Virus record (IMG/VR): IMGVR_UViG_3300020187_000010 | DNA length: 64,000 nucleotides | Direction: 5' to 3' (one strand) | DNA from: a virus | Part shown: positions 174 through 48,570 of the stretch, one piece after another | How positions within the stretch are numbered: position 1 is the stretch's first letter | Layout: every line of letters starts with the position of its first letter | The notes under the pieces: model-generated | Seen by the model: the letters and a program-made list of their open reading frames with translations, nothing else | Told to the model about the DNA's origin: nothing | The model's database searches: none | Position numbers and translations under genes: made by a program

Positions 174-982
174 CTAGGGAGATTCCATTTTTCTTGAGGA
201 AGGTTCACAATACGGTGATGGGTCTCTGCGTCTAGGTTATCTGCACCTGCAAACTGCACGTGTACAAACTTGGTGTTATCATCTCTCCAGTCATGGAGTT
301 CTCTTCCATCCACACCTTTATATCTACTGTAATGAATATAAGAGTTCCACCCATTATCCATACGTTGTACTTCAAAGTCGTGTACAAACATCATTGCATG
401 TAGGTATGGTTGATCACAAGTATAGAACGAGTCTAATCCCATTTGACGAACTAACTCAACATATCTTTTAGGATCTAACCAAGTCTCCCGTGCCTTCACA
501 CGTCCTTCTTTTGAATACAAGACCATTCCAGTATTGAAGACATCAATACCATATGAATTTCTAGGTAAGTCCGTTCCGAACATATTCTTACATAACGCAG
601 CGAAACGTTCGTCTTGTTCGTGAGTGATGCGACCACCGGTAATAGTACGAATACGTGGTTGTTCTGGTTCTGTACAGATACCAATCTCACCAGTAAATTC
701 GTCAAAGATGTTTGCCTCTAGACCTTCTACCGGAAAGACATCAGTATCTGCAAATAGAATCTTATCATACTTGTCGAAGGATTCATCGTAGATAGGTTTG
801 AATGCACCGTAGTGGGGAGAGTAGTTACCAAAGTTGTAACCAAAATGATTTTTGAGAAACTGAGGGTTCTCTTCGAAGATGTACTCTGCACCAATACGTT
901 CTGCGTATTCTTGCATGGCCATAACACCGGCACGACATGATTCTCTTACTTCACCATCCCAATATTGATAGATCAGGTTCAT
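170..982 (-). CDS. GT-A fold glycosyltransferase (nucleotide-diphospho-sugar transferase)
   Basis: YDKILFADTDVF DxD motif, FNTGMVL, DQPYLH, WN and FVHVQF motifs; likely start ATG at 982 with AAGGA RBS. Confidence 0.7.
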   Translation of the reverse strand: MNLIYQYWDGEVRESCRAGVMAMQEYAERIGAEYIFEENPQFLKNHFGYNFGNYSPHYGAFKPIYDESFDKYDKILFADTDVFPVEGLEANIFDEFTGEIGICTEPEQPRIRTITGGRITHEQDERFAALCKNMFGTDLPRNSYGIDVFNTGMVLYSKEGRVKARETWLDPKRYVELVRQMGLDSFYTCDQPYLHAMMFVHDFEVQRMDNGWNSYIHYSRYKGVDGRELHDWRDDNTKFVHVQFAGADNLDAETHHRIVNLPQEKWNLPS

Positions 983-1037
983 GACAAATTTCCTTAAAGG
1001 TTGGGGCAAAGTCCCATGACCTCACCCGTTTTTCTTT

Positions 1038-1145
1038 TTATACCATCAGTGCACTAAATGTTATATAGAACGTAATTGCACTTGCTAAACTGACTATAGT
1101 CATTCCTAATCTCTCTGATATTTTATCAGATCGTGACCTTTCCAT
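1038..1145 (-). CDS. Putative small membrane protein (35 aa)
   Basis: MERSRSDKISERLGMTIVSLASAITFYITFSALMV*, one hydrophobic segment, GAGG upstream; below the ORF-track cutoff. Confidence 0.4.
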   Translation of the reverse strand: MERSRSDKISERLGMTIVSLASAITFYITFSALMV

Positions 1146-1252
1146 AACTTTTACTAACCTCTGTTTAATTATATAATGAATTATTTCATTACGTATATAT
1201 GTATATAAACGCATACTCTTGATAGAGGCTATGCAAAAATATCATACCGCAT

Positions 1253-1786
1253 TTAGAAATAAATGGATGGGTCAGGGTCTCCTTCAACACCGAAGGAAAA
1301 ACTTACTCGACTATCGTGGGGAATCACTTGATGGTGGGTACCCCGAGGCAACCATACATAGTCGCCAGGATTGAACCAAAATGGTTCATCGTTATTATGA
1401 CCCTCTACTCGCATTTCAACGGATGCCAGAACTTGTACTAAAAACACGTCCATCTGGTCGAAGTGCCAAGGGTAAGAGTCGGAGTTCTTACCAATACCCG
1501 TAAATGCGATATTGGTAATCTTGTTTCCATGCAAAGAAAAAACGTCCTGCATCTCTTGTTCAATGTCTCGTGCGAACTGAGGTGCAGAAGGTCTACTATG
1601 GAAAGAGTTCAATCCGATACGAAACTTGTTCGTATTCGAATCTATTTGTTTATCCGGATGAGTATTGAGTAGGTGCATATGTTTGTTCCAATCATACACA
1701 TCACTTATTTCAAGAGGAAGTTTCCCAAAGAACGGGATCTTATCCGCAATGAATTCATCTTTATCTGTAAATATATCAAACATCAC
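1253..1786 (-). CDS. JmjC/cupin-like 2OG-Fe(II) oxygenase
   Basis: PWHFDQMDVFLVQV (HxD) and FNPGDYVWLPRGTHHQV...RVSFSF cupin motifs. Confidence 0.75.
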   Translation of the reverse strand: MMFDIFTDKDEFIADKIPFFGKLPLEISDVYDWNKHMHLLNTHPDKQIDSNTNKFRIGLNSFHSRPSAPQFARDIEQEMQDVFSLHGNKITNIAFTGIGKNSDSYPWHFDQMDVFLVQVLASVEMRVEGHNNDEPFWFNPGDYVWLPRGTHHQVIPHDSRVSFSFGVEGDPDPSIYF

Positions 1787-34425: not shown

Positions 34426-34785
34426 TTACCTTGTTACCGAAGGTGAGACTTTGATCTTACCCTCTAAAATTCGTTCAATGAGAATATTACCGTCACTATC
34501 ATTGACCGCTAATTCAACGTCATAGACGTAACGTGTTCTGGTATTGAGGGTGTCAGTTTGAGTATTTGTGAGGGATAAAACTGCAATACCATCTGTTGCG
34601 GGTTCGCTAACGATAGTGGTGAAATCTAGGATCTCATCACTGTCAACAGAAGTGTAACTACGTTTCATTTTTGCGTTAACGGTATGTCCAGTCAAGTTTT
34701 TCTTGGAACCGTCAGTTTCCTGAAGGTGCAACTCGATTGCAACGTCTGCGCCTTGATCAATTGTAAAGTCTTCGTAATCTGCCAT
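34426..34785 (-). CDS. Conserved virion adaptor-like protein (beta-sandwich)
   Basis: IDQGAD...LSLTNTQT...RYVYDVE...RILEG.I.V.PSVTR family common in marine T4-like phages. Confidence 0.7.
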   Translation of the reverse strand: MADYEDFTIDQGADVAIELHLQETDGSKKNLTGHTVNAKMKRSYTSVDSDEILDFTTIVSEPATDGIAVLSLTNTQTDTLNTRTRYVYDVELAVNDSDGNILIERILEGKIKVSPSVTR

Positions 34786-34822
34786 TCCAGTTCCCATCAA
34801 ACCAAAGTTGTGTCTATGGTTT

Positions 34823-34830
34823 TATTTATA
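34823..34830 (-). promoter_or_regulatory. T4-type late promoter
   Basis: TATAAATA upstream of the 34785 ORF. Confidence 0.7.
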
Positions 34831-34857: not shown

Positions 34858-35553
34858 TTATTCGTCTGAACTAATTTCTTCGAGTAAATCTTCGCGAAGT
34901 TCAGCGGATAGTTGGGAAGTATCGAAAGTGAAAGATACTGTACATCTCCAACAGTCAGTCTTCGCGGCATGATAGAACAATCTTTCGGGTTCACCGTAAT
35001 GACCAAAGTATGCTGCCTTGCACTGCCACCCTGGCTTATCTTCCATCACCACAACTTCTTTTGATATAGGATCTACATATTCGAATTGACCTTCTCCAGT
35101 TTCCGACCACGTGAAGATCAAATTATACGCTGCTGCATTTGCATTATTGTGCCAAGAGATAAAACCACCGGGCGGATACCATGCGGTTAGTGCATTATTT
35201 TTCACACCCAACCAATTCATAAGTCCTTGATTCATGTGCGCGAGTTCTGCGGTTCTATCTTTTCTTACCGAGGGATGAACCCCGTTATTGAAAAATTCAT
35301 GTCCCTTGCGACCAACACTCATTTCATAACCATACATCTGATCGGGAAATCCTTCGTGTCGGGTTCCTTGATCTAATATTTCTTCCAGATGACCTTTACC
35401 CGCCCAGAAATGTCTATTCCGTGATTCGTGAGAACAACTCTTATGAAATGTTTCCTCGAAGTCAGGGATATCTCTGGTCAAGAAATCTCGATAGGCATTT
35501 AATTTCACCAATAAGTCTTGGTTCATCACCGGAATGTCTTGCATATAACTCAT
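34858..35553 (-). CDS. 2OG-Fe(II) oxygenase-like protein (HxN variant)
   Basis: YPPGGFISWHNN...FYHAA...RCTVSF; clear paralog of 13749-14372 (shared YNLIFTWSETG.G.F, GW.CKA.YFG). Confidence 0.6.
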   Translation of the reverse strand: MSYMQDIPVMNQDLLVKLNAYRDFLTRDIPDFEETFHKSCSHESRNRHFWAGKGHLEEILDQGTRHEGFPDQMYGYEMSVGRKGHEFFNNGVHPSVRKDRTAELAHMNQGLMNWLGVKNNALTAWYPPGGFISWHNNANAAAYNLIFTWSETGEGQFEYVDPISKEVVVMEDKPGWQCKAAYFGHYGEPERLFYHAAKTDCWRCTVSFTFDTSQLSAELREDLLEEISSDE

Positions 35554-36284
35554 ATAATATATCCGTCCTTATCTAATCCACAGGAATAATGTCTGACAAT
35601 AACTTCACCTTCTGGTCTAGTCCTTGCCCAGTTGAATGCGTTATAATAGTTCCAACGCAAATCATCTTCCAAGATACCATACTTCAGGTCTTTGTATTTA
35701 GGTTCTTTCTCGGTCAACCACCAAAGACTGAACTGATCCCATGACCGAAGACTTTCTATATATCCTTCAGGCCACCAGTCACGATCCATTTGTCTGCGTG
35801 TGAGATCCCACCAATCATCCATGAACTCACGTACAATAGGTTTGGTCATATCGTAAAGTGCAACACCACCACATAGAGTGAACTTGGATGGGCCATCGGG
35901 AGTATCAAAACTTCTTTCGGCATAGACATATTCACGATCATCGGTCAATTCAGAGAATAAGATGTCTTCGTCACGTCTTTCCAATTCATCAAAACAAATG
36001 CGGATATCTTCGTGTTCCACTTCCATATCAACATCGAGGTACATGGTTAGGTCATATGGAGAACGAGCCATACCATCTAGTTTTGCACGGTAGTGGGATG
36101 AACACCATTCAACATTATCAAATAAATCTCGGTGTATTTCTTCGAACATCCACTCTTCGCAGAATAGTGTAATCTTCGCATCTTCGTAATAATCCAGAAT
36201 AGATTCTGCTAGATTGATCGCATACCGATAGAAGTTAATCTTATTCGATGCAACCAACACATAACCTTTAGACTTCTCAGACAT
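35550..36284 (-). CDS. GT-A fold glycosyltransferase
   Basis: SPYDLTMYLDVD (DxD), WDQFSLW, RWNYY, IVRHYS. Confidence 0.7.
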   Translation of the reverse strand: MSEKSKGYVLVASNKINFYRYAINLAESILDYYEDAKITLFCEEWMFEEIHRDLFDNVEWCSSHYRAKLDGMARSPYDLTMYLDVDMEVEHEDIRICFDELERRDEDILFSELTDDREYVYAERSFDTPDGPSKFTLCGGVALYDMTKPIVREFMDDWWDLTRRQMDRDWWPEGYIESLRSWDQFSLWWLTEKEPKYKDLKYGILEDDLRWNYYNAFNWARTRPEGEVIVRHYSCGLDKDGYII

Positions 36285-36732
36285 CTTCCTCAACTCCAAG
36301 TTCTTCTTTTAAAAGCAACATAGCAAAAAGATTCGCTTCTACCTTGGACTTTGCTCGTCTAAGTTTAGACTTGAGTTTTCTGTTCTTAGAGTTTTTAATT
36401 TCTTCGGTTTCGAAGATTTCTAATTTATAGTTAAAGAGTTCTTCTAACTTACGTGCACGTGCGTGTTCCACATCACGTTGTTTATCTTCTTCTTTTTCGG
36501 CAGCTTTACGAATCTTACGGTCTTCGGTATTTCTATCTACAGACTCTTCACCTAAAGCATCAATGACTTCATTGAACAATTCATTTTCACTACCATCCTT
36601 ATTCTTGCGACTCAACATCATTACTTGTCGGGTCTCGCGATCCAGATCATCTTTCATTTCTAGGATACAGTTGAGTTTTTCTTTCTCCTCTGTTTCCCAG
36701 AACGCATTATCCATCCATCTTTTATAACTCAT
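36277..36732 (-). CDS. Hypothetical charged helical protein (possible assembly chaperone)
   Basis: 151 aa, GGAG RBS, overlaps the start of the glycosyltransferase gene. Confidence 0.65.
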   Translation of the reverse strand: MSYKRWMDNAFWETEEKEKLNCILEMKDDLDRETRQVMMLSRKNKDGSENELFNEVIDALGEESVDRNTEDRKIRKAAEKEEDKQRDVEHARARKLEELFNYKLEIFETEEIKNSKNRKLKSKLRRAKSKVEANLFAMLLLKEELGVEEDV

Positions 36733-36781: not shown

Positions 36782-39700
36782 TTAAGCAACCCTTACGTAC
36801 AAGGTATATGTCTCAATCACTCCTGTTCCGGAATCAACAGTTGTTCCGGTATAATTACCAGTAAAGTTTCTGGCATAATTTCCTGCGAATGTTCTACTAT
36901 AGTTACCCGCAAAACCTCTACTATAATTACCAGTAAAGTCACCTAAGTATGACGAGGTTCTAGTTCTAGTAGAATCTATGGTATATGCTGAATTTCGACT
37001 TCTACTAAAAGTGGATACTCTAGTTCGTGCAGAGGTTCTGACCGAAGTTCTTGAGTAGTCCCCAACAAAAGTTCTACTATAGTTACCAGTAAAGTCTCCG
37101 ACATAATTAGAAGATCGGGTTCTTGCATATTCACCAACAAAGGTTCTATTGTAGTTACCCACAAAGTTACCCGCAAAGTCTGAAGTAGAATCCCGAGTAT
37201 ATTCTCCTACAAAGTTTCTGTTGTAGTTACCAACAAAATCTCCTACGAAAGTCCGGCCATAATTACCACCAAATATTCTTGAGAAGTTACCAGTGTATTC
37301 TCCTACAAAATCAGTCGCACGAGTTCTTGCATATTCTCCCACAAAGTTTCTGTTGTAGTTGCCGACATAGTTACCCGCAAAACCTCTTGCATAGTTACCA
37401 ACAAATCCTCTATTGTAGTTACCGACAAAATTACCCGCGAATGTACTGATACTATTTCTTGTGTATTCCCCAACAAAAGTTCTATTGAAATTGCCGGTAT
37501 AATTACCCCCAAATCCACGATTGTAATTACCTGCGAATGCACGAGCATAGTCACCAATAAAGTTTCCAATAGAGTCGGTTACCCGAGTCCTAGAATAGTT
37601 ACCTGCGAATGCACGAGCATAGTTACCTTCAAATGCACGAGTCGAAGTGCGGAGAGATATACGGGTATAGTTACCAACGAATCCTCTATTATAGTTACCG
37701 ACAAAATTACCTGCGAATGTACTGATACTATTTCTGGTATAGTTTCCGGTAAAGGTTCTACCATAGTCACCAACAAAGTTTCCAATAGAGTCGGTTATAC
37801 GAGTTCTTGCGTAGGCAGATACACGATTACGAATATAAGACGATGCACGAGTACGTATATATGTGGATATTCTACTACGGGTCGATATACGAGTATATTC
37901 ACCAGTATAGTTGCCGGTGTAGTTGCCTGCAAATCCACGAGTATAATCACCAGTGAAATTACCTGCGAACGTGCGAGTATAGTTCGATGACAATGTGAGC
38001 ATATCAGTGATACTAGGACTTGCTGCGTTTGTAGTATCATCTACACGAGGTTCCCAGAACTGTTGATTGGTCGCGGTATCTGTTGAGTAATACAAGTATG
38101 TTCTGTGGTATGCAGTAGTGTTACCACTCCAGACAAAATCATTCTGAGCGGATACAACTTTCTCACCCGCCATATTATAGATACCAGAGTCAGCATGAGC
38201 CGCACCGGTACCAGAACCTTCGGGGAAAACGTGACCGACTACCAAAAACCATTCGTTTTGAGATTCGGTACCATACCACCAACCTCTCGCTTGGAAGTAC
38301 GGATTACTGTTAGATGCACCATTACTTCTGTTCAATACTGTTCCGCCAACACCAAGATAGAATGAACCATTACCAATAACTTTACGTCTTACCCATGTAG
38401 AGAATCTGTATAGTTTGGTTTTATCAACTGAGAAAGCTGAAGTATTCCAACCACCATCTGCATTAGATGTCGCATCTTGATTTGACACATCCCAAACGAT
38501 ATCAGTACCCTTCGGAGAAGTGTCGGAAATACGTGAGTTACCGTCCCCGTTCTGATTATAGTTAGTTGCAGAACCAGTACCAACTGTCCAAGCAGGAAAG
38601 TTCTGCCACAACAAGTTAGATTGATCTGAGTAACGTGTACCAGTTGTACCTACGAACTGAACGATACTATCACGAGTTGATGTACGAGTATACGTAGAAC
38701 TTCTGTTTTGAATACGAGTTCTTGTGTAATTACTAGGTCTACTGCGTGTAGATATTCTAATGTATGCGGATGATCTACTACGTGCCGATATACGAGTATA
38801 TGTGGAGAGACGGCCGCGGGTCGATGGGTTTATTGAAGTGCGAATATATGAAGAATTTCTACTACGGGTCGATATTCTAGTATACGCAGAGATGCGAGTT
38901 CGCGAATAGTCACCTATAAAGTTTCGCGAATAGTTTCCTATGTAGTCTCCGGTATAATATCCAATGCGAGTGTAGTCGCCTATGTAGTCACCTGCATAAG
39001 ATCCAATGCGAGTATAGTCACCCGTAAAGTCACCTGCGTAATATCCAATGCGAGTAAAGTATAATGGAGTTATTCTATTACGAATAGATATGCGAGTATA
39101 GTCTCCGGTATAGTACAATGTGCGAGTATAGTTACCGATGTAATATAGAGTTCGAGTATAGTCGCCTGTATAATACAATGTACGAGTATAGTTACCGGTG
39201 TAATATAGAGTTCGAGTATAGTCGCCCGTAAAGTTACCTATATAATATCCGGTTCGGATATAGGTATCGATTCGATTCGAAGTACGGGTACTTGTTCTAA
39301 TGTACGTACCGGTTCCAATTCTAGTACGTATAGATGTTCTGATATAATATCCGGTCGCAGTTCTGGTTCTCGAAGAATATCTCAGGTAATTCGCAACCCC
39401 CAAATAATCACCGGTATAATACACTGTCTGTTTAACTATTCGAGTATAGTCACCTACATAGTTAACTATTCTATTATAGTTACCTACAAAATTACCAACA
39501 TAATACAATGTACGAGTGTAGTTACCTGTGAAATTACCAATGTAATACAATGTACGAGTGTAGTTACCTGTGAAATCACCTGCATAATATGATGTACGTT
39601 GGTAGTATAATGTAGCAATTCTGTCTCTTATTGATATACGTTGGTAGTTACCAGTCGCAATTCTGGTACGAATATATGTTCCGGTGGCAGTTCTGGTACG

Positions 39701-42142
39701 AATATATGTTCCGGTGGCAGTTCTGGTTCTGATATAGTCACCAGTTGCAATTCTTATACGAGTATAATTTCCGGTATAGTTACCAGTATAGGTCGAATCA
39801 CGAGTATATGTTAAAATTCGACTACTAGTTCGAAGACTCGTTCGGATATAGTTGAGTGTGCGAACTGAAGTTCGAAGACTCGTTCGGATATAGTTGAGTG
39901 TGCGAACTGAAATACGTGTGCTGTTTCTGGTATATGCAGAAGGACGAGTACGGCCATATTCTCCTACGAACCCTCTATTATAATTGCCAGTATAATTGCC
40001 AGCAAACGCACGAGTATAATTTCCGGTATAGTTACCAATGTAGTTTCCGGCAAATGTTCTTTGGTAGTTACCAGTATAGTCGCCAGCAAACGCACGGTTA
40101 TAATTTCCGGTATAGTTACCAGCAAATGATCTACCATAGTCGCCGACATAATTACCGACAAATGTTCTTGCGTAATTACCACCAAAGTTACCGACATATC
40201 CTTGGAATCTGTCGCGAGTATATGTTACCAATGAATTCCGTGAAGAAATACGAGTGTAGTTGGAACCTCTTGTTCTTGCACTAATACGTGTTGATATACG
40301 AGAATAGTTGCCGGTATAGTCACCCGCAAACCCACGTGAATAGTTACCTATAAATGTTCTATTATAATTACCAACAAATGTTCTATTATAGTTACCAACA
40401 TAGTCACCGGTAAAAGTTACAAGTCTATCCCGAACATAATTGGAAACTCGGCCACGAGTGTAGTTACCAATAAAGTCACCGGTAAAGTCTGTTACTCGAT
40501 CACGTGTATATGCGGATATTCTCGTGCGTGTATAATTGCCTGTATAATTACCTGCATAATTAGAAACACGAATTCTTGCGTATGCAGAGATACGAGTACG
40601 GCCGTAGTTACCAACATAGTTACCGGTAAAAGTCGTTAGTTGATCTCTGGTGTATGTGGAGCTTCTAGTTCGGGTATATGCGGAGATACGAGTACGGGTA
40701 CTTATTCTAGAGTATGATGATACTCTGTTACGTGCATAGTTGCCAACAAAGTCGCCAATAAAGGATGTTACTCGATCACGAATATATGCACTGGTACGTG
40801 TTCGCGAATATGTTGATATGCGATTACGTGAGTATGTTCCTGCGTATGCGGATACTCTAGTACGGGAATAATCCCCAACAAAATTACCAATATAGTTTCC
40901 CGAAAACACGGTTGTGTATGTAGATGTTCTGTTACGAGTATATGTACTCAACCTGTTGCGAATACTATTTCTACTGTATGCAGATACTCTTGTTCTAGAA
41001 TAATTGCCTACAAAGTTACCTGTGAAAGTATTGATACTATCTCTGGTATATGCAGAAGATCTATTGCGAACATACTCGCCCACAAAGATTCTAGAGAAAG
41101 TATCAGTACTGTTTCTAGTGAAAGTTGAAGCACGGTTTCTTGTGTACTCACCTACGTAATTACCGACATACTCACCCACATAATCTCTGATATATTGTCC
41201 CGAAAAGTTTCGAGTGTAGTTGCCAATATAATTTCCACCAAAATCTCGGGTGAACGTATTTGTGCTATTACGAGTGTATAGTGAAGTTCTTGTTCTTGCG
41301 TATGCGGATGAACGATCACGAGTATAAGAAGATGCACGAGTACGAACATATGCAAGTTCTGAAGTTGTTCTTTTAGTATTGGTCGCAGTACCTTTTGCGG
41401 CCCAAGTTCCTGCACTTACCGGAGTTCCCTGAGTCGCAGATCTTAATTGGTAAGAACCAATATTACCCACCTTTCCCCTAAGAGTTTTACAGTGTTGTCC
41501 ATAAGTGTAAGTAATCTGGTTAACAGATTGTTCTTGTAATCCACCAAAACTGGCGGCAGAACCTGACCCAATCATACCAATCGGAGACGTGGCTGTCGGT
41601 GCAGTCATTGCATCACGTTGGTAGATATTGTATACTGTAGAAGTTCCGTTACCTAATGTATCTGTGTATACAGCGGGGATAAATGTACCATAGTCCGCAC
41701 TAGGTGCAGAAGAACCGAGGTAAAAGGTGCCTGGATAATCAGATATTGCAATACGTGCATTCAGACGAGTACATAAGGTATCCATATCTACATCAGTAAA
41801 TTCATGAATACCTACATCACCCGAAGTGTTCCAACCAACCGGTCTGTTATAAAAACTACCAGTATAGTTCGCATCATTAGATAGTTGTCTTAGATTAGTC
41901 GTAGTTGTGCCGGAAGTGATAGATGATGCGGGATGGGTACCATCAGGTTCATTGTAGAAAGTATCAACGAAAGAACCAATGATAGTACCACTAGAGAGAT
42001 GCAAGTCTCCCGCAGAAGAACCCGAAGAATTCTTTAGTTGAATACCTGCAAGATAGGCGAGATAGTTCTCTTCCGTAGGAGTCATCTCCTTCAGATCACC
42101 ATTCGTACCTTCTAACTTTAGTGGGATATCAGATGCGGCCAC
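36782..42142 (-). CDS. Giant self-complementary tetrapeptide-repeat protein A (1786 aa), predicted beta-hairpin filament with an inserted globular domain
   Basis: GTG start; ~265-aa N-terminal domain shared with the paralog; xGxY/xRxR/xSxY/xRxF words; 221-aa insert; C-terminal ETYTLYVRVA. Confidence 0.85.
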   Translation of the reverse strand: MAASDIPLKLEGTNGDLKEMTPTEENYLAYLAGIQLKNSSGSSAGDLHLSSGTIIGSFVDTFYNEPDGTHPASSITSGTTTTNLRQLSNDANYTGSFYNRPVGWNTSGDVGIHEFTDVDMDTLCTRLNARIAISDYPGTFYLGSSAPSADYGTFIPAVYTDTLGNGTSTVYNIYQRDAMTAPTATSPIGMIGSGSAASFGGLQEQSVNQITYTYGQHCKTLRGKVGNIGSYQLRSATQGTPVSAGTWAAKGTATNTKRTTSELAYVRTRASSYTRDRSSAYARTRTSLYTRNSTNTFTRDFGGNYIGNYTRNFSGQYIRDYVGEYVGNYVGEYTRNRASTFTRNSTDTFSRIFVGEYVRNRSSAYTRDSINTFTGNFVGNYSRTRVSAYSRNSIRNRLSTYTRNRTSTYTTVFSGNYIGNFVGDYSRTRVSAYAGTYSRNRISTYSRTRTSAYIRDRVTSFIGDFVGNYARNRVSSYSRISTRTRISAYTRTRSSTYTRDQLTTFTGNYVGNYGRTRISAYARIRVSNYAGNYTGNYTRTRISAYTRDRVTDFTGDFIGNYTRGRVSNYVRDRLVTFTGDYVGNYNRTFVGNYNRTFIGNYSRGFAGDYTGNYSRISTRISARTRGSNYTRISSRNSLVTYTRDRFQGYVGNFGGNYARTFVGNYVGDYGRSFAGNYTGNYNRAFAGDYTGNYQRTFAGNYIGNYTGNYTRAFAGNYTGNYNRGFVGEYGRTRPSAYTRNSTRISVRTLNYIRTSLRTSVRTLNYIRTSLRTSSRILTYTRDSTYTGNYTGNYTRIRIATGDYIRTRTATGTYIRTRTATGTYIRTRIATGNYQRISIRDRIATLYYQRTSYYAGDFTGNYTRTLYYIGNFTGNYTRTLYYVGNFVGNYNRIVNYVGDYTRIVKQTVYYTGDYLGVANYLRYSSRTRTATGYYIRTSIRTRIGTGTYIRTSTRTSNRIDTYIRTGYYIGNFTGDYTRTLYYTGNYTRTLYYTGDYTRTLYYIGNYTRTLYYTGDYTRISIRNRITPLYFTRIGYYAGDFTGDYTRIGSYAGDYIGDYTRIGYYTGDYIGNYSRNFIGDYSRTRISAYTRISTRSRNSSYIRTSINPSTRGRLSTYTRISARSRSSAYIRISTRSRPSNYTRTRIQNRSSTYTRTSTRDSIVQFVGTTGTRYSDQSNLLWQNFPAWTVGTGSATNYNQNGDGNSRISDTSPKGTDIVWDVSNQDATSNADGGWNTSAFSVDKTKLYRFSTWVRRKVIGNGSFYLGVGGTVLNRSNGASNSNPYFQARGWWYGTESQNEWFLVVGHVFPEGSGTGAAHADSGIYNMAGEKVVSAQNDFVWSGNTTAYHRTYLYYSTDTATNQQFWEPRVDDTTNAASPSITDMLTLSSNYTRTFAGNFTGDYTRGFAGNYTGNYTGEYTRISTRSRISTYIRTRASSYIRNRVSAYARTRITDSIGNFVGDYGRTFTGNYTRNSISTFAGNFVGNYNRGFVGNYTRISLRTSTRAFEGNYARAFAGNYSRTRVTDSIGNFIGDYARAFAGNYNRGFGGNYTGNFNRTFVGEYTRNSISTFAGNFVGNYNRGFVGNYARGFAGNYVGNYNRNFVGEYARTRATDFVGEYTGNFSRIFGGNYGRTFVGDFVGNYNRNFVGEYTRDSTSDFAGNFVGNYNRTFVGEYARTRSSNYVGDFTGNYSRTFVGDYSRTSVRTSARTRVSTFSRSRNSAYTIDSTRTRTSSYLGDFTGNYSRGFAGNYSRTFAGNYARNFTGNYTGTTVDSGTGVIETYTLYVRVA
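39661..39726. repeat. 30-bp tandem repeat (IRTRTATGTY)
   Basis: TTCTGGTACGAATATATGTTCCGGTGGCAG twice, plus a partial third copy. Confidence 0.85.
39827..39910. repeat. Perfect 42-bp tandem duplication (VRTLNYIRTSLRTS)
   Basis: AGTTCGAAGACTCGTTCGGATATAGTTGAGTGTGCGAACTGA twice. Confidence 0.9.
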
Positions 42143-42175: not shown

Positions 42176-42183
42176 TATTTATA
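42176..42183 (-). promoter_or_regulatory. T4-type late promoter upstream of repeat protein A
   Basis: TATAAATA about 34 nt before the GTG. Confidence 0.75.
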
Positions 42184-42190
42184 AGTTTAT

Positions 42191-45100
42191 TTATGCGGTT
42201 CTTACATACAGAGTATATGTTTCAACTGAGAATGTAGTATCCCTAATAGTCTGACCCACGTAGTCTCCTACAAAGTCTCTGGAATAATTACCGGCAAAGT
42301 TTCTACTATAATTACCGGTATAGTTGCCGCCAAAATCTCTAGTACTTGTTCGAGTAGACTCTCTAGTATATGAAGATCCTCTAGTTCTGGTGTATGTAGA
42401 CCCACGATTTCTTATAAAGTTTGTATTACTTACACGGGTATAGTTGGAGTTTCTATTTCTGGTAAACTCACCAGTATAATCACCGACATAATCCGCAGCA
42501 TAAACTCCAACGTATGTAGATGCTCTTAAAGTTATGTATGACGAAACCCGAGATCTACTGAAAGAATCGAACCTTGTTCTGGCTGATATTCGTGTGAAAT
42601 CTCCGGTATAGTTGCCGCCAAAATCTCTTGTGTAATTACCTGCAAAGTTTCTTGAGTAAGACGATACCCGAGTTCTGATATATGTCGAATAACGATCATT
42701 TAAACTAACTCTGGTAAATAGACCTGCATAATTACCGGTATAGTTACCGGCAAAGTCTCTCGTATATTCACCGGTATAGTTACCAGTATAGAGTGAAACC
42801 CTAGTCCGTATATAATTACTGTTTCTTTCTCGGGTAAAGTCTCTTGCATACTGTCCCGAGAAAGTAGAAGACCTAGTCAGTATATAATTACTGTTTCTTT
42901 CTCGGGTAAAGTCTCTTGAATATTGTCCCGAGAAAGTAGAAGATCTAGATCTTATGTAACTAGAATCTCTATTTCTGGTAAAGTCCCTCGCATATTCTCC
43001 CGCAAAAGTAGAAGATCTAACTCTTATGTAATTCGAATTTCTAGTTCTTTCATAGTTTCTTGAGTATTCGCCAACAAACAATCTATTATAACTTGATACT
43101 CTGGCTCTTTCGAAGTTTCTTGAGTATTCCCCAGCAAACTCTCTAGAATAAGTAGATACCCGAGTCCTAGTAAATTCGCGAGTGAATCCCTGCAAATATG
43201 AACTGACTCTTGTGAAATCACCAATGTATGAAGGAACCGTCCTAGTAGCTATAAAGTCACCGGTATACGTAGCGGGGCCAGCAAAGTAAAGACCACCACC
43301 CGATTTGTCGTATCTGACAGAATTCACAAATCCCGCAAAAGTAGATGTACTGTTACGAGTATATTCTCCTCCCGGCAATCCCAAATAACCAGCACCCACA
43401 AAGTCTCTTGTGTAATCACCAGTATAGTATAAAGTACCTTTTAGGTATTCTGCACGAGCTCGTGTATAATTACTTACTCTAACACCACCATATGTGGATG
43501 TCGAAGTGCGTGTAAAGTTTAATGTTCGAGTGAAGTTGCCAATATATGTTGAGAAACGAGTTCTGCTGAAGTTTCTATTATATGTAGAAATTCTATCTCT
43601 TGTATAGTCACGTGCATATTCACCAACAAAGGCTCTATTATATGCTGAACTTCTATCTCTAGTGAAGTCACGTGCATAGTTACCAATATATGTGGCAGTA
43701 TAATTGCCAGTGTAAGTTGATGACCTAATTCTAGTGAAGTCACGTGAATATTGTCCAGAGAAAAATCTGGAGTAATTGCCAGTGTAAGTTGATGACCTAA
43801 TTCTAGTGAAGTTACGTGCATATTGTCCAGAGAAAAGTCTGGTATAATCGCCAGTGTAATTAGAATTTCTAATTCTAGTGTAGTCACGTGCATATTGTCC
43901 AGAGAAAAATCTGGTGTAATCGCCAGTGTAATTAGAATTTCTACTTACTATTCTTGTTCTGGTATAGGTAGATGTTCTAGCACGTGTCGAGATTCGTGTA
44001 TATTCACCTACATAGTTACCAGCATAGTTGCCAAGAAACATTCTAGTATAGTTGCCGGTAAAGTCTCTGGAATAATTAGATGTACGAGTTCTACCATAAG
44101 CCGATTCCCGAGTCCGTGTGAAGTCTCTGGTATAATTGCCTGTAAATTCACCGGCATATGAACTGATACGTGTCGCTATGAAATCTCTAAAAAAGGTACG
44201 TGAAAAGTTGCGACTGAAGTTACCTGTGTAATTTCCAATATAGTTGCCTGTAAAGTCTCTAGAATAGTCTCCGACAAAAGTTCTACCATAGTCGCCAGTA
44301 AAATCACCGGTATAATTGCCCGTAAATTCTCTGGTATAGTTTCCTATAAATTCTCTGGTGTAATTGCCTGTGAATTCACCGGCATATGAAGTTGTCCCTG
44401 TGCGAGTGTAATCATCAGCGTAAGCCGAAGGTCTAGTTCTCGTGTATAAAGATGCTCGTGTGCGAGTATAGTTCTGTTCACTGACAACACGAATGGTGTT
44501 TGCAGCACTACCTACATTCTTCCAAGTACCACCGACAGGTATACCCTGCGAAGAAGTTCTAAGTTCATATGATCCGACCGCACCATCAATTGCACGTCTG
44601 GTTTTCGCACGTTGACCAATAGTCACTTGAACTTGACGATCTGTTAATGCTTGTAATCCTTCATAAGTACCAGAGGCGCCACTACTTCTCTTCAGTCCCG
44701 CGAGAGTGACCGAAGTTGGAGCAGTCATTGCAGTTCTACGCCATATACTATAGTCATTTACAGTATATGGGTTCCCCGAAGAGTCAGCACGTTGATCATG
44801 CAAAACACTAGGGACTAGAATGTCATAGTCTGCACTAGGTCTGGTCGAAGACAACTTGAGAGAGCCTGGATAGTCAGATAGTGCGATACGACCATTGATA
44901 TCATCGATGAAAGTGTTCAGATCATTATCCGACATTTCATATACATTACTTTCATAATGTCCGACTGGTTTTCTCCAATCACTATCATTCTCTAGTGCGG
45001 TACCATTGATCTGATATAAATTTGTTGTGGTGGTAATAACCGATTGGGCATTATATGGATGAGTTCCAACGGGTTCTGGATAATAGGTATCCGTCAGAGA

Positions 45101-45277
45101 TCCAAGAGACCTATTTCCACTTGCACTGAGCGTAAGAAGCCCTACATCGCTACTGTCCGCAATTGCGTTCTGTAGTCCTGCGAGGTAGGCAACATAATTT
45201 TTCTCGGTTGCATTTATCTGTTGGAGATTACCATTAATGTCTTTTAATTTTAACGGTAATGTCTTATTATCTGACAT
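42191..45277 (-). CDS. Giant self-complementary tetrapeptide-repeat protein B (1028 aa)
   Basis: Paralog of A (PLKL, NY.AYLAG, SDYPG, AMTAPT, GSY.LR; C-terminal ETYTLYVRTA) with the same word vocabulary. Confidence 0.85.
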   Translation of the reverse strand: MSDNKTLPLKLKDINGNLQQINATEKNYVAYLAGLQNAIADSSDVGLLTLSASGNRSLGSLTDTYYPEPVGTHPYNAQSVITTTTNLYQINGTALENDSDWRKPVGHYESNVYEMSDNDLNTFIDDINGRIALSDYPGSLKLSSTRPSADYDILVPSVLHDQRADSSGNPYTVNDYSIWRRTAMTAPTSVTLAGLKRSSGASGTYEGLQALTDRQVQVTIGQRAKTRRAIDGAVGSYELRTSSQGIPVGGTWKNVGSAANTIRVVSEQNYTRTRASLYTRTRPSAYADDYTRTGTTSYAGEFTGNYTREFIGNYTREFTGNYTGDFTGDYGRTFVGDYSRDFTGNYIGNYTGNFSRNFSRTFFRDFIATRISSYAGEFTGNYTRDFTRTRESAYGRTRTSNYSRDFTGNYTRMFLGNYAGNYVGEYTRISTRARTSTYTRTRIVSRNSNYTGDYTRFFSGQYARDYTRIRNSNYTGDYTRLFSGQYARNFTRIRSSTYTGNYSRFFSGQYSRDFTRIRSSTYTGNYTATYIGNYARDFTRDRSSAYNRAFVGEYARDYTRDRISTYNRNFSRTRFSTYIGNFTRTLNFTRTSTSTYGGVRVSNYTRARAEYLKGTLYYTGDYTRDFVGAGYLGLPGGEYTRNSTSTFAGFVNSVRYDKSGGGLYFAGPATYTGDFIATRTVPSYIGDFTRVSSYLQGFTREFTRTRVSTYSREFAGEYSRNFERARVSSYNRLFVGEYSRNYERTRNSNYIRVRSSTFAGEYARDFTRNRDSSYIRSRSSTFSGQYSRDFTRERNSNYILTRSSTFSGQYARDFTRERNSNYIRTRVSLYTGNYTGEYTRDFAGNYTGNYAGLFTRVSLNDRYSTYIRTRVSSYSRNFAGNYTRDFGGNYTGDFTRISARTRFDSFSRSRVSSYITLRASTYVGVYAADYVGDYTGEFTRNRNSNYTRVSNTNFIRNRGSTYTRTRGSSYTRESTRTSTRDFGGNYTGNYSRNFAGNYSRDFVGDYVGQTIRDTTFSVETYTLYVRTA

Positions 45278-45291
45278 TCTCTTTCCTACTA

Positions 45292-48200
45292 TTAGTTTAG
45301 AAGAGTACCGTTTTCGTCATAGATTAAGACAGTTCTAGATGCCAGTTCATTTAACGCTTTAACAATACTATCATTATTTATACCTTCAAAGAAGTTGCCT
45401 GGCGCAGAACTGTCAAGTGTATTCAACTGACCAACTCGATTACTCAAGTTTAGAATGTCTGTGTCATTACTTGTGACTCTACCCTTTACGACTTCAATTT
45501 CACCAACCGCACTATCCAGTTGGGTGTGGATCTCATTGATAGCCGGAACAATAAACTTACTTGTTGTATCCAGTGTGGAGATACCTGTTCCTGACATGTT
45601 CGCAGTTGTACCACCGGACTGTATAATGTCCAGATGCGCACGGGTTATAAGTTTCTCGGACTCTATCTCGGTAACTGCACTATCTAGTTGCAAATGAAGT
45701 TCATTGATACCACCCGCAACATCTTGTGCGGTAGTGTCTAGATCTTCGTCAGTGTGGAATGCACGACCATGTATCTCTACCTTAGTTGCATCCATTTCGA
45801 TTGCAAGACCAGTACCAGAATAAATGTCCAGATGATTGCCAGAGTTTCGGAATTCACCAAACTGAACGGTTGCATCTTTAAGGAATACATTACCACCGTC
45901 TGCATCAAGTGTAATATCACCGGAGACATCATACGTCAGATTTCCTACAACATCAACTTCTTGGTTTGTACCAAGGTTATAGGTGAACTTAGTTACACCG
46001 CCATCCTTGAAGAAGATGTCCGCGCCATTCGCGTCAAGTGTAATATCACCTTCTGCATCAAGAAGAATATTTGTTCCTGCATTGATGGTTGCAGTTGTTC
46101 CTGCGGTAGTAGATGTAGATCCACCGGCAGTCTGTACAATACTACCTGTAGTAGTCAGACCATACGAGTCCGCACTATCATTTAATGCACCGATGATAGC
46201 ATTTACTAATGTGCCACCAACAGTAGTAGTTTTGTTTACAGTAATATTCTCTTTTACCGAACCACCAATAGTTAGACTATAACCATTTGTAGTAGTCAAA
46301 GATGCAGAATCACTTACCGATATATTATAATCTCCGGTAACAGTGATGTTGTTTGTTGCACCTAATTGATGACGGATGCGTGTGGATGCACCGTCTTTGA
46401 AGTAAATGTCGTTTCCATCTGCGTCAAGTGTAATATCACCAGAAGCATCGATCAAGTAATTACCATCTGCTGTATGGGTTTGTCCCAATGATGTTGTGGT
46501 CAATGTACCCAAAGTAGTATGAGACATTGCACCACTAGAAGTAACTGAGTAAGTACCACCAGCACTATCAGATTGGTTACCTGATACAGTTTGTGTAAGA
46601 TTACCGTTAACATCTAAAGTGTTTGACGCACCCATTCCATATGAGAAACGAGAAGTACCTGCATCTTTGAAGTCGATGTCTCCACCGTCTGCATCCAGTA
46701 CTATATCACCTGCCACATCGACAGTTAAGTTGCCGGTGGGTACGTCAATCTCTTGATTCGCACCCATAACGAAGTCGAATCTGATCGCCCCATTATCTTT
46801 AAGTGTAACATTACCGCCATTTGCATCAAGGTTAATATCACCCTCAACATCTGCGGTTAGGTTACCACCAGCGGTAAGACCCATGTTTGATTCAGTAACA
46901 AGATTGAACGCACCACCCGCAGTATTCGTCATCGGGCCACGAGTGTCGATATTAATACCGTTAGTCGAAGAGATGTCACGAGTACCAGAAGCACTGTCAG
47001 AGTGATCTCCTGCCACTGTAAGGGTGTTGTTACCCGAAGTAGTAGTAGTGAGTGTACCTGTAACATCTAAAGTATTTGCTGAACCCAGTCCGTAAGCAAA
47101 ACGAGTCGTTCCAGCTTGTTTGAGGTCAATGTCACCACCACCGGCATCCAATACAATATCATTGACAACATCAAAGATCAACGAACCGACAACATCAATC
47201 TCTTGATTCGTACCGAAATTATATGTTACCTTATTGGCACCACCATCTGTTAGATATAGTTGTCCACCATCAGCATCGAGAGTAATATCTCCAGATGCAT
47301 CAACAGTGAAGTTTCCCGCCACATTATGGGTTTGTCCCAATGATGTTGTGGTGAGAGTACCAAGAGTGGTATGAGACATCGCACCAGTTGAGGTGATGTC
47401 ACGAGTACCATTTGCACTGTCTGAGAAGTTGCCTGAGACGGTTTGAGTTAGATTACCTGTAATGTCTAAGGTATTAGATGCACCAAGTCCGTATTCAAAT
47501 CTAGATACTCCACCGTCTTTTAGGTCGATGTTTGCGCCATCTGCGTCTAATATAATATTACCAGACACATCAAGAGTATAATTGCCAGTTACGGCTTCGG
47601 TGTTAGTGGTACCCATCGTATATGCAATACGAGTAACACCACCATCTTTGTATGTAATGTTTGCCCCATCTGCATCGAAGATTATATCACCCGAGATGTC
47701 AAATGTCAAGTTTCCGGTACGAGAAACTGTACCGTCAGTAGCAAAGTCGTACTCTGTGACACCAGCATCTTTGAATGTGACATTACCACCATCAGCATCA
47801 AGGATAATATCTCCGGACGCATCGACAGTGTATGTGGTCGTTTCTATTCTAGTTGCACCGGTAGAGGTAAGAGTTGTATCACCAGATACATCGATATCTA
47901 AGTTAGAAGAAATATCAAGATCAAGGATACCAGTCACACCAACTGTGTTAGTGGTACCTAATGTGAATGCAATACGACTGACCGAATCATCAAGGAAGTT
48001 GATGTTAGATCCACCGGCATCTAAATTAATATCACCTACCGCATCAACGTTGAAGTTTGCACCGACATTGAATTGTACATCAGTACCACTTGCTTGATTA
48101 GTACTGATTAGTAAACGAGTTTGAGTTTCCCCTTGGAGGGCATTTCCCGTAGGATAAATGATTTCACCGGAAGATGCGTCAAACACTCTTTCGATTTCGT

Positions 48201-48333: not shown

Positions 48334-48570
48334 CTATAGTTTCTCTACTAGTTGTGAAAGTAAGGATTTGATATCATGGATATCTGACTCTAGTCTATCA
48401 ACCTTTACTTTAAGATTCTTTTCATCTTGCATCTTTTGTTTACGGAGTTTCTTCTGTTCCCGTGCAAGTTGTATTTCACTTCTATTTATATTAATAATGG
48501 CACCCGACTCTGCATCTCTTGCAAAATCGGGTTCATCTTTTACGTGTACCAACTGTCTCTGTTTTCTCAT
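48334..48570 (-). CDS. Small coiled-coil conserved hypothetical protein
   Basis: RDAESGAIININ...LESDIHDIKSLLSQL; commonly follows VrlC-like genes. Confidence 0.7.
   Translation of the reverse strand: MRKQRQLVHVKDEPDFARDAESGAIININRSEIQLAREQKKLRKQKMQDEKNLKVKVDRLESDIHDIKSLLSQLVEKL

Follow-up and report, generated by a model that had tools for sequence, protein, structure and literature searches.

Mirror-matched repeat arms in a protein of a marine T4-like virus suggest a long out-and-back fibre

The 64,000-nucleotide (nt) stretch of virus record IMGVR_UViG_3300020187_000010 that was analysed here as a whole (the window) encodes two neighbouring paralogous proteins, B (P0001, 1028 amino acids, aa) and A (P0002, 1786 aa). 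In protein B, a region made largely of short repeated words (residues 271-1006, corresponding to 42260-44467 of the window) separates a globular N-terminal domain (N-domain) from a short C-terminal tail (C-tail). The words form two arms, and the C-terminal arm read backwards complements the N-terminal one. What does such a chain build? Since the two arms match each other like mirror images, the chain most likely doubles back to form a long, thin fibre. With a probability of about 0.7 we take protein B to be a late virion fibre that consists of a single long beta-hairpin, which runs out and back, is closed at a base knob and has its length set by matched numbers of words on the two arms.

For the comparison of the arms the words were assigned to four classes: a (xRxR-like, with no terminal aromatic residue), b (xSxY following an a word), g (xGxY/F) and r (xRxF/Y). 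When the C-terminal arm was reversed and set against the N-terminal arm without gaps at shift 0, 34 of the 78 word pairs were a:g and 20 were b:r, next to 6 b:b, 5 r:r, 2 a:a and 3 g:g pairs. At 60 other antiparallel shifts the number of a:g pairs was 4-17. In a register-free count, 24 of the 28 RxR words of protein B stood opposite GxY/F on a single antidiagonal (z 16.7), whereas in 1000 shuffles of the word order the maxima averaged 7.5 and never exceeded 12. Parallel (diagonal) pairing reached 14 at best and was rejected. A DNA palindrome as the source of the signal was rejected as well: the B gene has no DNA inverted repeat, and the pairing is thus a property of the protein. The mirror matching extends gap-free over 312 residues, residue for residue.

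The original prediction had described these matches as a pairing code. Every word pair that it cited was present (rows 1-4, 8, 10 and 11), as was a looser patch (rows 18-29), and the antidiagonal analysis that it had suggested gave a very strong signal, which recurs across homologs of different length. The strong complementarity therefore stands. Code, however, is a loose term for it, because the rule mainly states that xRxR faces xGxY/F and never xRxR, whereas the remaining positions are b:r, b:b and r:r. In the register i+j = 1278, which the two-chain model suggests for the arms, the cross-strand pairs would comprise 64 Arg:aromatic, 27 Arg:Gly, 4 Arg:Arg and 0 aromatic:aromatic pairs, so placed that nearly all aromatic residues lie opposite arginine, serine or glycine.

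The pairing is conserved. Family members were gathered by a word-index search and an exhaustive phmmer search (E up to 1e-3), which gave 534 clusters at 50% identity, with full-length members of 404-4046 aa (median 823). Among close full-length homologs, 16 of 16 (P0004), 16 of 17 (P0003), 13 of 14 (P0005), 19 of 22, 18 of 23 and again 18 of 23 RxR words lay on one antidiagonal (z 12-16). For protein A the count was 32 of 48. A 146-kb contig of another phage encodes the same paralog pair, and in its 1144-aa member all RxR words (35/35) were placed in this way. Nearly all xRxR words of the homologs of 724-1786 aa fall on one antidiagonal that starts at the base of the arms. The antidiagonal constant K minus the protein length was 238-259 in each homolog; as this difference always falls in that range, the antidiagonal spans the first to the last arm word at any length. 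Many distant members contain hardly any RxR words or none at all, so that the plain RxR test does not work for them. With a broader marker applied to the whole family, the best antidiagonal was base-anchored in 44 of the 101 scorable full-length members, compared with 5.2% of shuffles. The tail motif was found in 109 of 163 family sequences examined and varies very little, with L, Y and R invariant.

Three members from metagenomes, P0157, P0113 and P0137, use word sets that differ from that of protein B. P0157 (422 aa) has about seven xGVRxVNF octamers on the N-terminal arm that face five xGPQPQxF octamers on the C-terminal arm, and in P0137 TRNSTxDF octamers face xGDF and xGNF words. With such other word sets in use, the pairing idea may extend to several word 'alphabets'.

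Insertions and deletions (indels) in the arms are compensated on the opposite side. The nearest virus record among those compared encodes orthologs of both B (91% identity) and A (90%). Its B ortholog is 98% identical to B in the N-domain, 86-89% in the arms, 91% in the irregular centre (the apex) and 100% in the C-tail, and is longer by two insertions of 20 residues each, one following B530 and the other B749. The two positions add up to 1279, i. e. to the antidiagonal, and 30 of 35 pairs in this longer protein stay on one antidiagonal. Read at the level of the two sequences, the mirrored +20/+20 insertions are a compensatory indel. In the A ortholog of the same record, the two sides of the upper stem have each gained a 14-mer, one of G-type and the other of R-type, and in other homolog pairs the indels lie in the apex or are roughly mirrored. 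Mirrored point substitutions between B and its ortholog were not enriched (20 observed, 20.9 expected). The case for covariation hence rests on indels and word order, because covariation of point substitutions is not seen at 91% identity. The substitutions at word positions 1 to 4 numbered 28, 8, 36 and 9 of 156 in B and 14, 0, 10 and 2 of 188 in A. Such a bias towards odd positions would be expected for a beta strand with one constrained face. Both arms of B also hold 72-nt (24-residue) tandem direct repeats (43698-43936 and 42834-43009, minus strand), and the repeated blocks stand opposite each other; tandem duplication on the two sides seems to be how the arms grow.

There is next to no probability that low-complexity repeats produced the pairing by chance. 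The arms contain few word types, and some matches, as in the 4-17 pairs at other shifts, are to be expected. Yet the z values against shuffles were 13-19 in nine proteins, the signal is confined to one sharp shift, and neither compensatory indels nor base-anchored antidiagonals in 44 of 101 members against 5.2% fit an origin by chance. The shuffle and shift controls ruled this explanation out.

How the two ends of the chain are arranged was addressed by modelling with AlphaFold2 (AF2). For full-length protein B, the predicted local distance difference test score (pLDDT) was ~90 in the N-domain and 72-94 in the tail. In the arms it was ~23, so that there is no usable arm model of B. The shortest family member (404 aa, alignment of 71 rows) gave a mean pLDDT of 80.9 with 92-98 in the tail, and in its model straight strands of 36-38 residues (242-277 and 365-402) leave the domain. 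A two-chain model of B 1-298 with B 979-1028 scored 0.92, the best of three controls 0.68; that mark was reached by 58 of 80 solved complexes and by 2 of 110 mismatched pairs, a rough comparison only, as our own alignment was used. The two-chain runs had a contact agreement of at least 81% and a partner pLDDT of at least 65. This model has the tail strand 1021-1026 flanked by strands 234-239 and 252-258, and brings residues 250-280 into contact with 996-1028. Where 252-258 meets 1021-1026, the numbers of the paired residues add up to 1277-1279, as they do on the antidiagonal of the arms; the arms thus appear to prolong a hairpin of the domain. The models, with tail pLDDT values of 72-98 and two-chain scores of 0.92 versus 0.68, support the earlier proposal that the N-domain and the C-tail together form an anchor. 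Tail docking and beta strands at the base can be regarded as model-supported.

The division of protein B into two arms (271-588 and 689-1006) and an irregular apex of about 100 aa was reproduced by word parsing. The translations of A and B likewise agree with the original prediction of an identical 22-residue tail ending ETYTLYVR.A, of a common N-domain (42% identity, E 6e-63) and, on comparison of both word lists, of a different word order in the two proteins. Bounded by aromatic residues, 85 of the 148 words of B are 4-mers and 33 are 8-mers. The arms are composed of R (16%), T (14.5%), S (12%), Y (12%), G (8.5%), N (8%) and F (8%), with A at 4.6%, P at 0.2% and no K, H, C or W. With D+E at 8% as against 16% R, their net charge is strongly positive. 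N-x-T/S triplets occur at many word junctions (GNY-T, RNST).

The centre of the antidiagonal in B is located at E638/Y639, directly after P635-G636-G637, which makes a reversal point near these residues plausible. The apex core matches the close ortholog (89%) and no other family member. In the homologs the centres hold unrelated sequences, several of them small domain-like inserts (e. g. +100 residues in P0008 versus P0010), and the distal end is thus a variable cassette across the family. Between distant homologs the apex sequences are unrelated. Hypervariability was not seen between close orthologs, in which the apex (91%) is no more variable than the arms (86-89%).

In the mechanism that we propose, the chain would leave the N-domain as an extended strand of tetrapeptide words, reverse near P635-G636-G637 and run back beside itself in antiparallel register over the full length. 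The last strand, TYTLYVR, would then insert between two strands of the N-domain, bringing both ends into one base knob. Even word positions (G/R/S, Y/F) would form a conserved face and odd positions (T/V/S, N/D) a variable one, and an xRxR word would have to face an xGxY/F word. As the arms must match word for word, length could change only via matched insertions on both arms, and the genome would fix the length of the fibre through matched word numbers. Attachment to the tail or baseplate would be via the base knob, and the variable part, presumably the one that binds the host, would sit at the distal end. Table 1 lists the coordinates of these elements and of those in protein A.

Table 1. 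Features of proteins B and A in the window and their putative promoters. Residue numbers refer to the respective protein.
Feature	Residues	Position in window	Strand	Basis or remark
Gene for predicted hairpin protein B (P0001, 1028 aa)		42191..45277	minus	List of open reading frames and translation; stop codon included
N-terminal globular domain of B (putative base/anchor)	1-270	44468..45277	minus	AF2 pLDDT ~90
Ascending N-terminal arm of B	271-588	43514..44467	minus	78 tetrapeptide words (271-582) and hexamer TRTLNF
Irregular Gly/aromatic apex of B (100 residues)	589-688	43214..43513	minus	Shared with close ortholog only
P635-G636-G637-E638, candidate reversal turn	635-638	43364..43375	minus	Antidiagonal centre, i+j = 1277-1278; presumed turn
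Descending C-terminal arm of B	689-1006	42260..43213	minus	Hexamer TRVSSY and 78 tetrapeptide words (695-1006); complements N-terminal arm read backwards
22-residue C-tail of B	strand TYTLYVR, 1020-1026	42194..42259	minus	Docks into N-domain in models
TATAAATA, T4-type late-promoter motif		45375..45382	minus	98 nt before start of B
TATAAATA		42176-42183	minus	34 nt before start of A
Gene for paralog A (P0002, 1786 aa)		36782..42142	minus	Adjoins B downstream; domain, tail and pairing rule common to both
Lower stem of A	266-640 with 1396-1764			Antidiagonal analysis
Upper stem of A	640-900 with 905-1165			Antidiagonal analysis
Globular non-repeat insert of A (~225 residues)	~1165-1388	37979-38650	minus	Descending arm, junction of lower and upper stem

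Several points weigh against a single-chain hairpin fibre. AF2 shows no hairpin beyond the first 10-20 arm residues, and the conserved face would carry about one arginine per four residues with no acidic partner there, which is odd for a buried core. If fully extended, an arm of the 3347- and 4046-aa members would reach 0.5-0.6 micrometres, which would make an exceptionally long fibre. In about half of the family xRxR words are too scarce for scoring, and the generalised marker rescues only part of these members. The 3347-aa homolog of phage C48C1 (L001 11992-22035, plus strand) has no single antidiagonal; it shows several strong local ones (K 2662, 2977 and 1036), none of them base-anchored, and probably has a multi-stem or branched layout with inserts. 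Finally, phage fibres are usually trimers, and sequence alone cannot separate an intramolecular hairpin from antiparallel pairing between chains.

The last point leads to the possibility that the arms pair between chains, either in a domain-swapped dimer or trimer or in a rod with an N-domain at each end, which we consider unlikely. An antiparallel homo-oligomer would give the same i+j = K signal, and the tail test, being done on two separate chains, cannot tell a protein's own tail from that of its neighbour. Intertwined trimers, moreover, are common among phage fibres (T4 gp37, PMC6957217). What speaks for one chain is that the centre of symmetry lies directly after Pro-Gly-Gly and that the AF2 monomer confidently folds the N-domain with its own tail. 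The unrelated inserts of very different sizes at the homolog centres also suit a tip and not a dyad in the middle of a rod.

A paired ribbon could also be coiled or packed into something compact (a superhelix, solenoid or sandwich, for example); its length would then not amount to ~0.33 nm per residue, and the protein would not form a thin filament. Arms that lack a usable model leave room for this, members of 3347-4046 aa are implausibly long if extended, and the ortholog comparison gives a 4-residue glycine pattern and not a plain 2-residue one. We nevertheless hold it to be quite improbable: the odd/even substitution pattern suits plain beta strands, AF2 draws straight strands at the base of the 404-aa member (36-38 residues), and a gap-free antiparallel match over 312 residues is most simply explained by a two-stranded ribbon. 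A pentapeptide-repeat or other beta-solenoid fold, which would call for units of 5 residues (or coils of 15-25) in parallel stacks, was rejected on other grounds; the unit here is 4 residues, and the long-range signal is antiparallel (24 versus 14 parallel).

The gene neighbourhood bears on the function of the putative hairpin. The minus strand carries every long open reading frame (ORF) of the window. The B gene is located between a gp5-like baseplate hub gene and other fibre genes: 5' of it are the genes for the gp5-like hub (PF10106, phrog_430), a 1960-aa DUF4815 protein, a gp8-like wedge protein and a gp9/10-like protein, and 3' of it follow paralog A, three small genes, a gene for an LtfC-like protein and genes for more fibre-like proteins, including a PHROG tail-fibre protein. 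Two other phage genomes hold the same gene module in the same position. The motif TATAAATA precedes both hairpin genes. It occurs in 11 copies in the window, all on the coding (minus) strand, where 4.5 were expected over both strands; further copies are at 48483-48490 and 34823-34830. This distribution is consistent with T4-type late promoters ahead of structural genes. The source of the DNA is an uncultured marine-type T4-like myovirus, the gp8-like wedge protein of which has only 26-36% identity to deposited phages, cyanophages and pelagiphages included.

A hairpin protein with another role, namely a head or neck whisker or a late protein outside the virion, has in our opinion little probability. 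B shows no homology to any fibre family, and its arms are strongly basic (R 16% versus D+E 8%). Against this stand the position of the gene inside a baseplate/fibre module, after the gp5-like hub and before the LtfC-like and PHROG tail-fibre proteins, the conservation of this position in two other phage genomes, the late-promoter motif, and variable distal cassettes, which are typical of host-recognition proteins.

The three small genes that follow the hairpin pair (ORFs 36277-36732, 35550-36299 and 34858-35553, together 34858-36732, minus strand) are 65%, 68% and 45% identical to the trio after the C48C1 homolog, i. e. better conserved than the fibres, and contig L007 has them in the same order. 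The 151-aa protein of the trio is highly charged and helical-looking, and the 249-aa protein contains a DVDMEV (DxD-like) motif. No Pfam, PHROG or PDB sequence match was obtained for the trio. Its proteins are candidate chaperones or tailoring enzymes for the fibres. A 124-aa ORF further downstream (34426-34800, minus strand), which is also preceded by TATAAATA, has a weak LtfC-like beta-sandwich match (PF23926) that misses the cut-off (E 8.6e-4).

Protein A has a more complex anatomy than B, with a lower and an upper stem and a globular insert in the descending arm. In the upper stem, 14-mers stand opposite 14-mers and 10-mers opposite 10-mers, and R-density and G-density are anticorrelated (r = -0.78 over 261 pairs). 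The insert is the most variable part between orthologs, with 64% identity compared with 96-99% for the lower stems, domain and tail. It had no Pfam match at E up to 10 and is a candidate for a receptor-binding domain that is placed in the middle of the fibre and not at its tip. The original prediction of two filaments of different, genetically set length was right as to the ratio of the arms, which from base to turn comprise ~368 residues in B and ~639 in A. Filaments as such, and their length in nm, are presumed here, the pLDDT of the arms in AF2 being ~23.

No described or solved protein is related to the hairpin design, and nothing in the sources searched matches the tetrapeptide pairing rule. 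Pfam contains no family for B or A, PHROGs none for B, and no profile of annotated phage tail-fibre families in either database matched B. For A there was one marginal PHROG match of unknown function (E 4.8e-4). A PDB profile search with the family alignment gave 0 matches, the ESM Atlas feature search returned unnamed viral clusters only, and nothing on the family came up in literature searches for its motifs, its architecture or the phage name.

By analogy, the closest known design would be the collar and needle at the tip of T4 gp37. There, the D10 collar is formed by residues 811-881 and 1010-1026, the chain leaving the collar, reaching the tip and returning, and stem glycines are positioned across from aromatics on the partner strand, e. 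g. G921 with F970 (PMC6957217). The modelled protein B would share with the D10 collar and D11 needle an out-and-back chain with a C-terminus that completes the base domain. Both would be tail-fibre proteins of T4-type phages, a role that in the case of B is predicted. In contrast to gp37, where the needle has ~130 residues, each arm here has 318-640 residues or more (3-10 times longer), and the out-and-back part constitutes the whole protein and closes on the N-terminal domain. The tetrapeptide words and the xRxR/xGxY rule are absent from gp37, and the His-x-His iron sites of the needle are missing from the arms of B, which contain no histidine. Homology to gp37 D10/D11 or to the gp10/gp11/gp12 collar was not supported by any Pfam, PHROG or PDB-profile match or by a significant Foldseek result, and T4 gp11 gave Z 2.8 over 49 residues with the modelled domain.

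For the base knob, both models were compared with PDB and BFVD by Foldseek and with the Atlas by shape; apart from the family's own clusters nothing was found. The modelled N-domain with C-tail matched four MABP-type beta-prisms (VIA), namely the MVB12 MABP domain (3tow), the C-terminal domain of Plu-MACPF (2qp2), Mp2Ba1 (8b6v) and the perforin-2 P2 domain (6sb1), with Z 7.1, 6.7, 5.8 and 5.0, the next row having 2.8. The alignments cover 115-123 of ~290 residues at a root-mean-square deviation of 3.6-6.0 A and 6-9% identity, with Z below the level that the tool calls clear. The same four lead for the model of B. The likeness of the putative base knob to beta-prisms is a lead only, and a long hairpin is absent from all four of these domains.

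A fold-back of one chain also occurs in streptococcal antigen I/II (SpaP, SspB), in which an Ala-rich helix and a Pro-rich polyproline II (PPII) helix pair repeat by repeat; the result is a long stalk that has its two termini together at the base and a variable domain at the opposite end. The likeness would be one of topology only. Antigen I/II is a bacterial adhesin without homology to B and has an alpha/PPII structure, whereas that of B is predicted to be beta; Ala-rich and Pro-rich arms of its kind were not found in B (A 4.6%, P 0.2%). A further analogy, to RNA stem-loops, would lie in complementary reversed arms with indels and word swaps compensated on the opposite arm, and in irregular loops or inserts, which occupy the apex or bulge out of the stem as the globular insert of A does. 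Here, however, the molecule is a protein, the pairs are tetrapeptide classes and the rule is degenerate.

A bolder proposal, which we rate at clearly less than even odds, is that these proteins constitute a new class of fibrous protein. One chain would be zipped over hundreds of residues into a two-stranded beta-ribbon with a continuous cross-strand ladder of arginine and aromatic residues and glycine 'holes' opposite the second arginine of xRxR. The ribbon would be ~0.1-0.6 micrometre long as set by matched words, and would evolve by compensatory insertions like RNA stems. If the hairpin model of protein B holds, a simple, readable sequence rule would specify a single-chain protein rod of any chosen length, which could serve as a length-programmable scaffold for protein design and nanomaterials. 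For protein evolution it would mean that compensatory indels and 'base-pair-like' covariation can be read directly in the sequence.

The family occurs in abundant uncultured marine T4-like phages, whereas among 50,697 deposited phage records a single one (C48C1, OQ984149, with the 3347-aa member) encodes it. For phage biology, the hairpin reading would add a large unannotated family of presumed host-recognition fibres, and the centre of the antidiagonal may offer a practical way to locate the distal, likely receptor-binding, cassette in each member.

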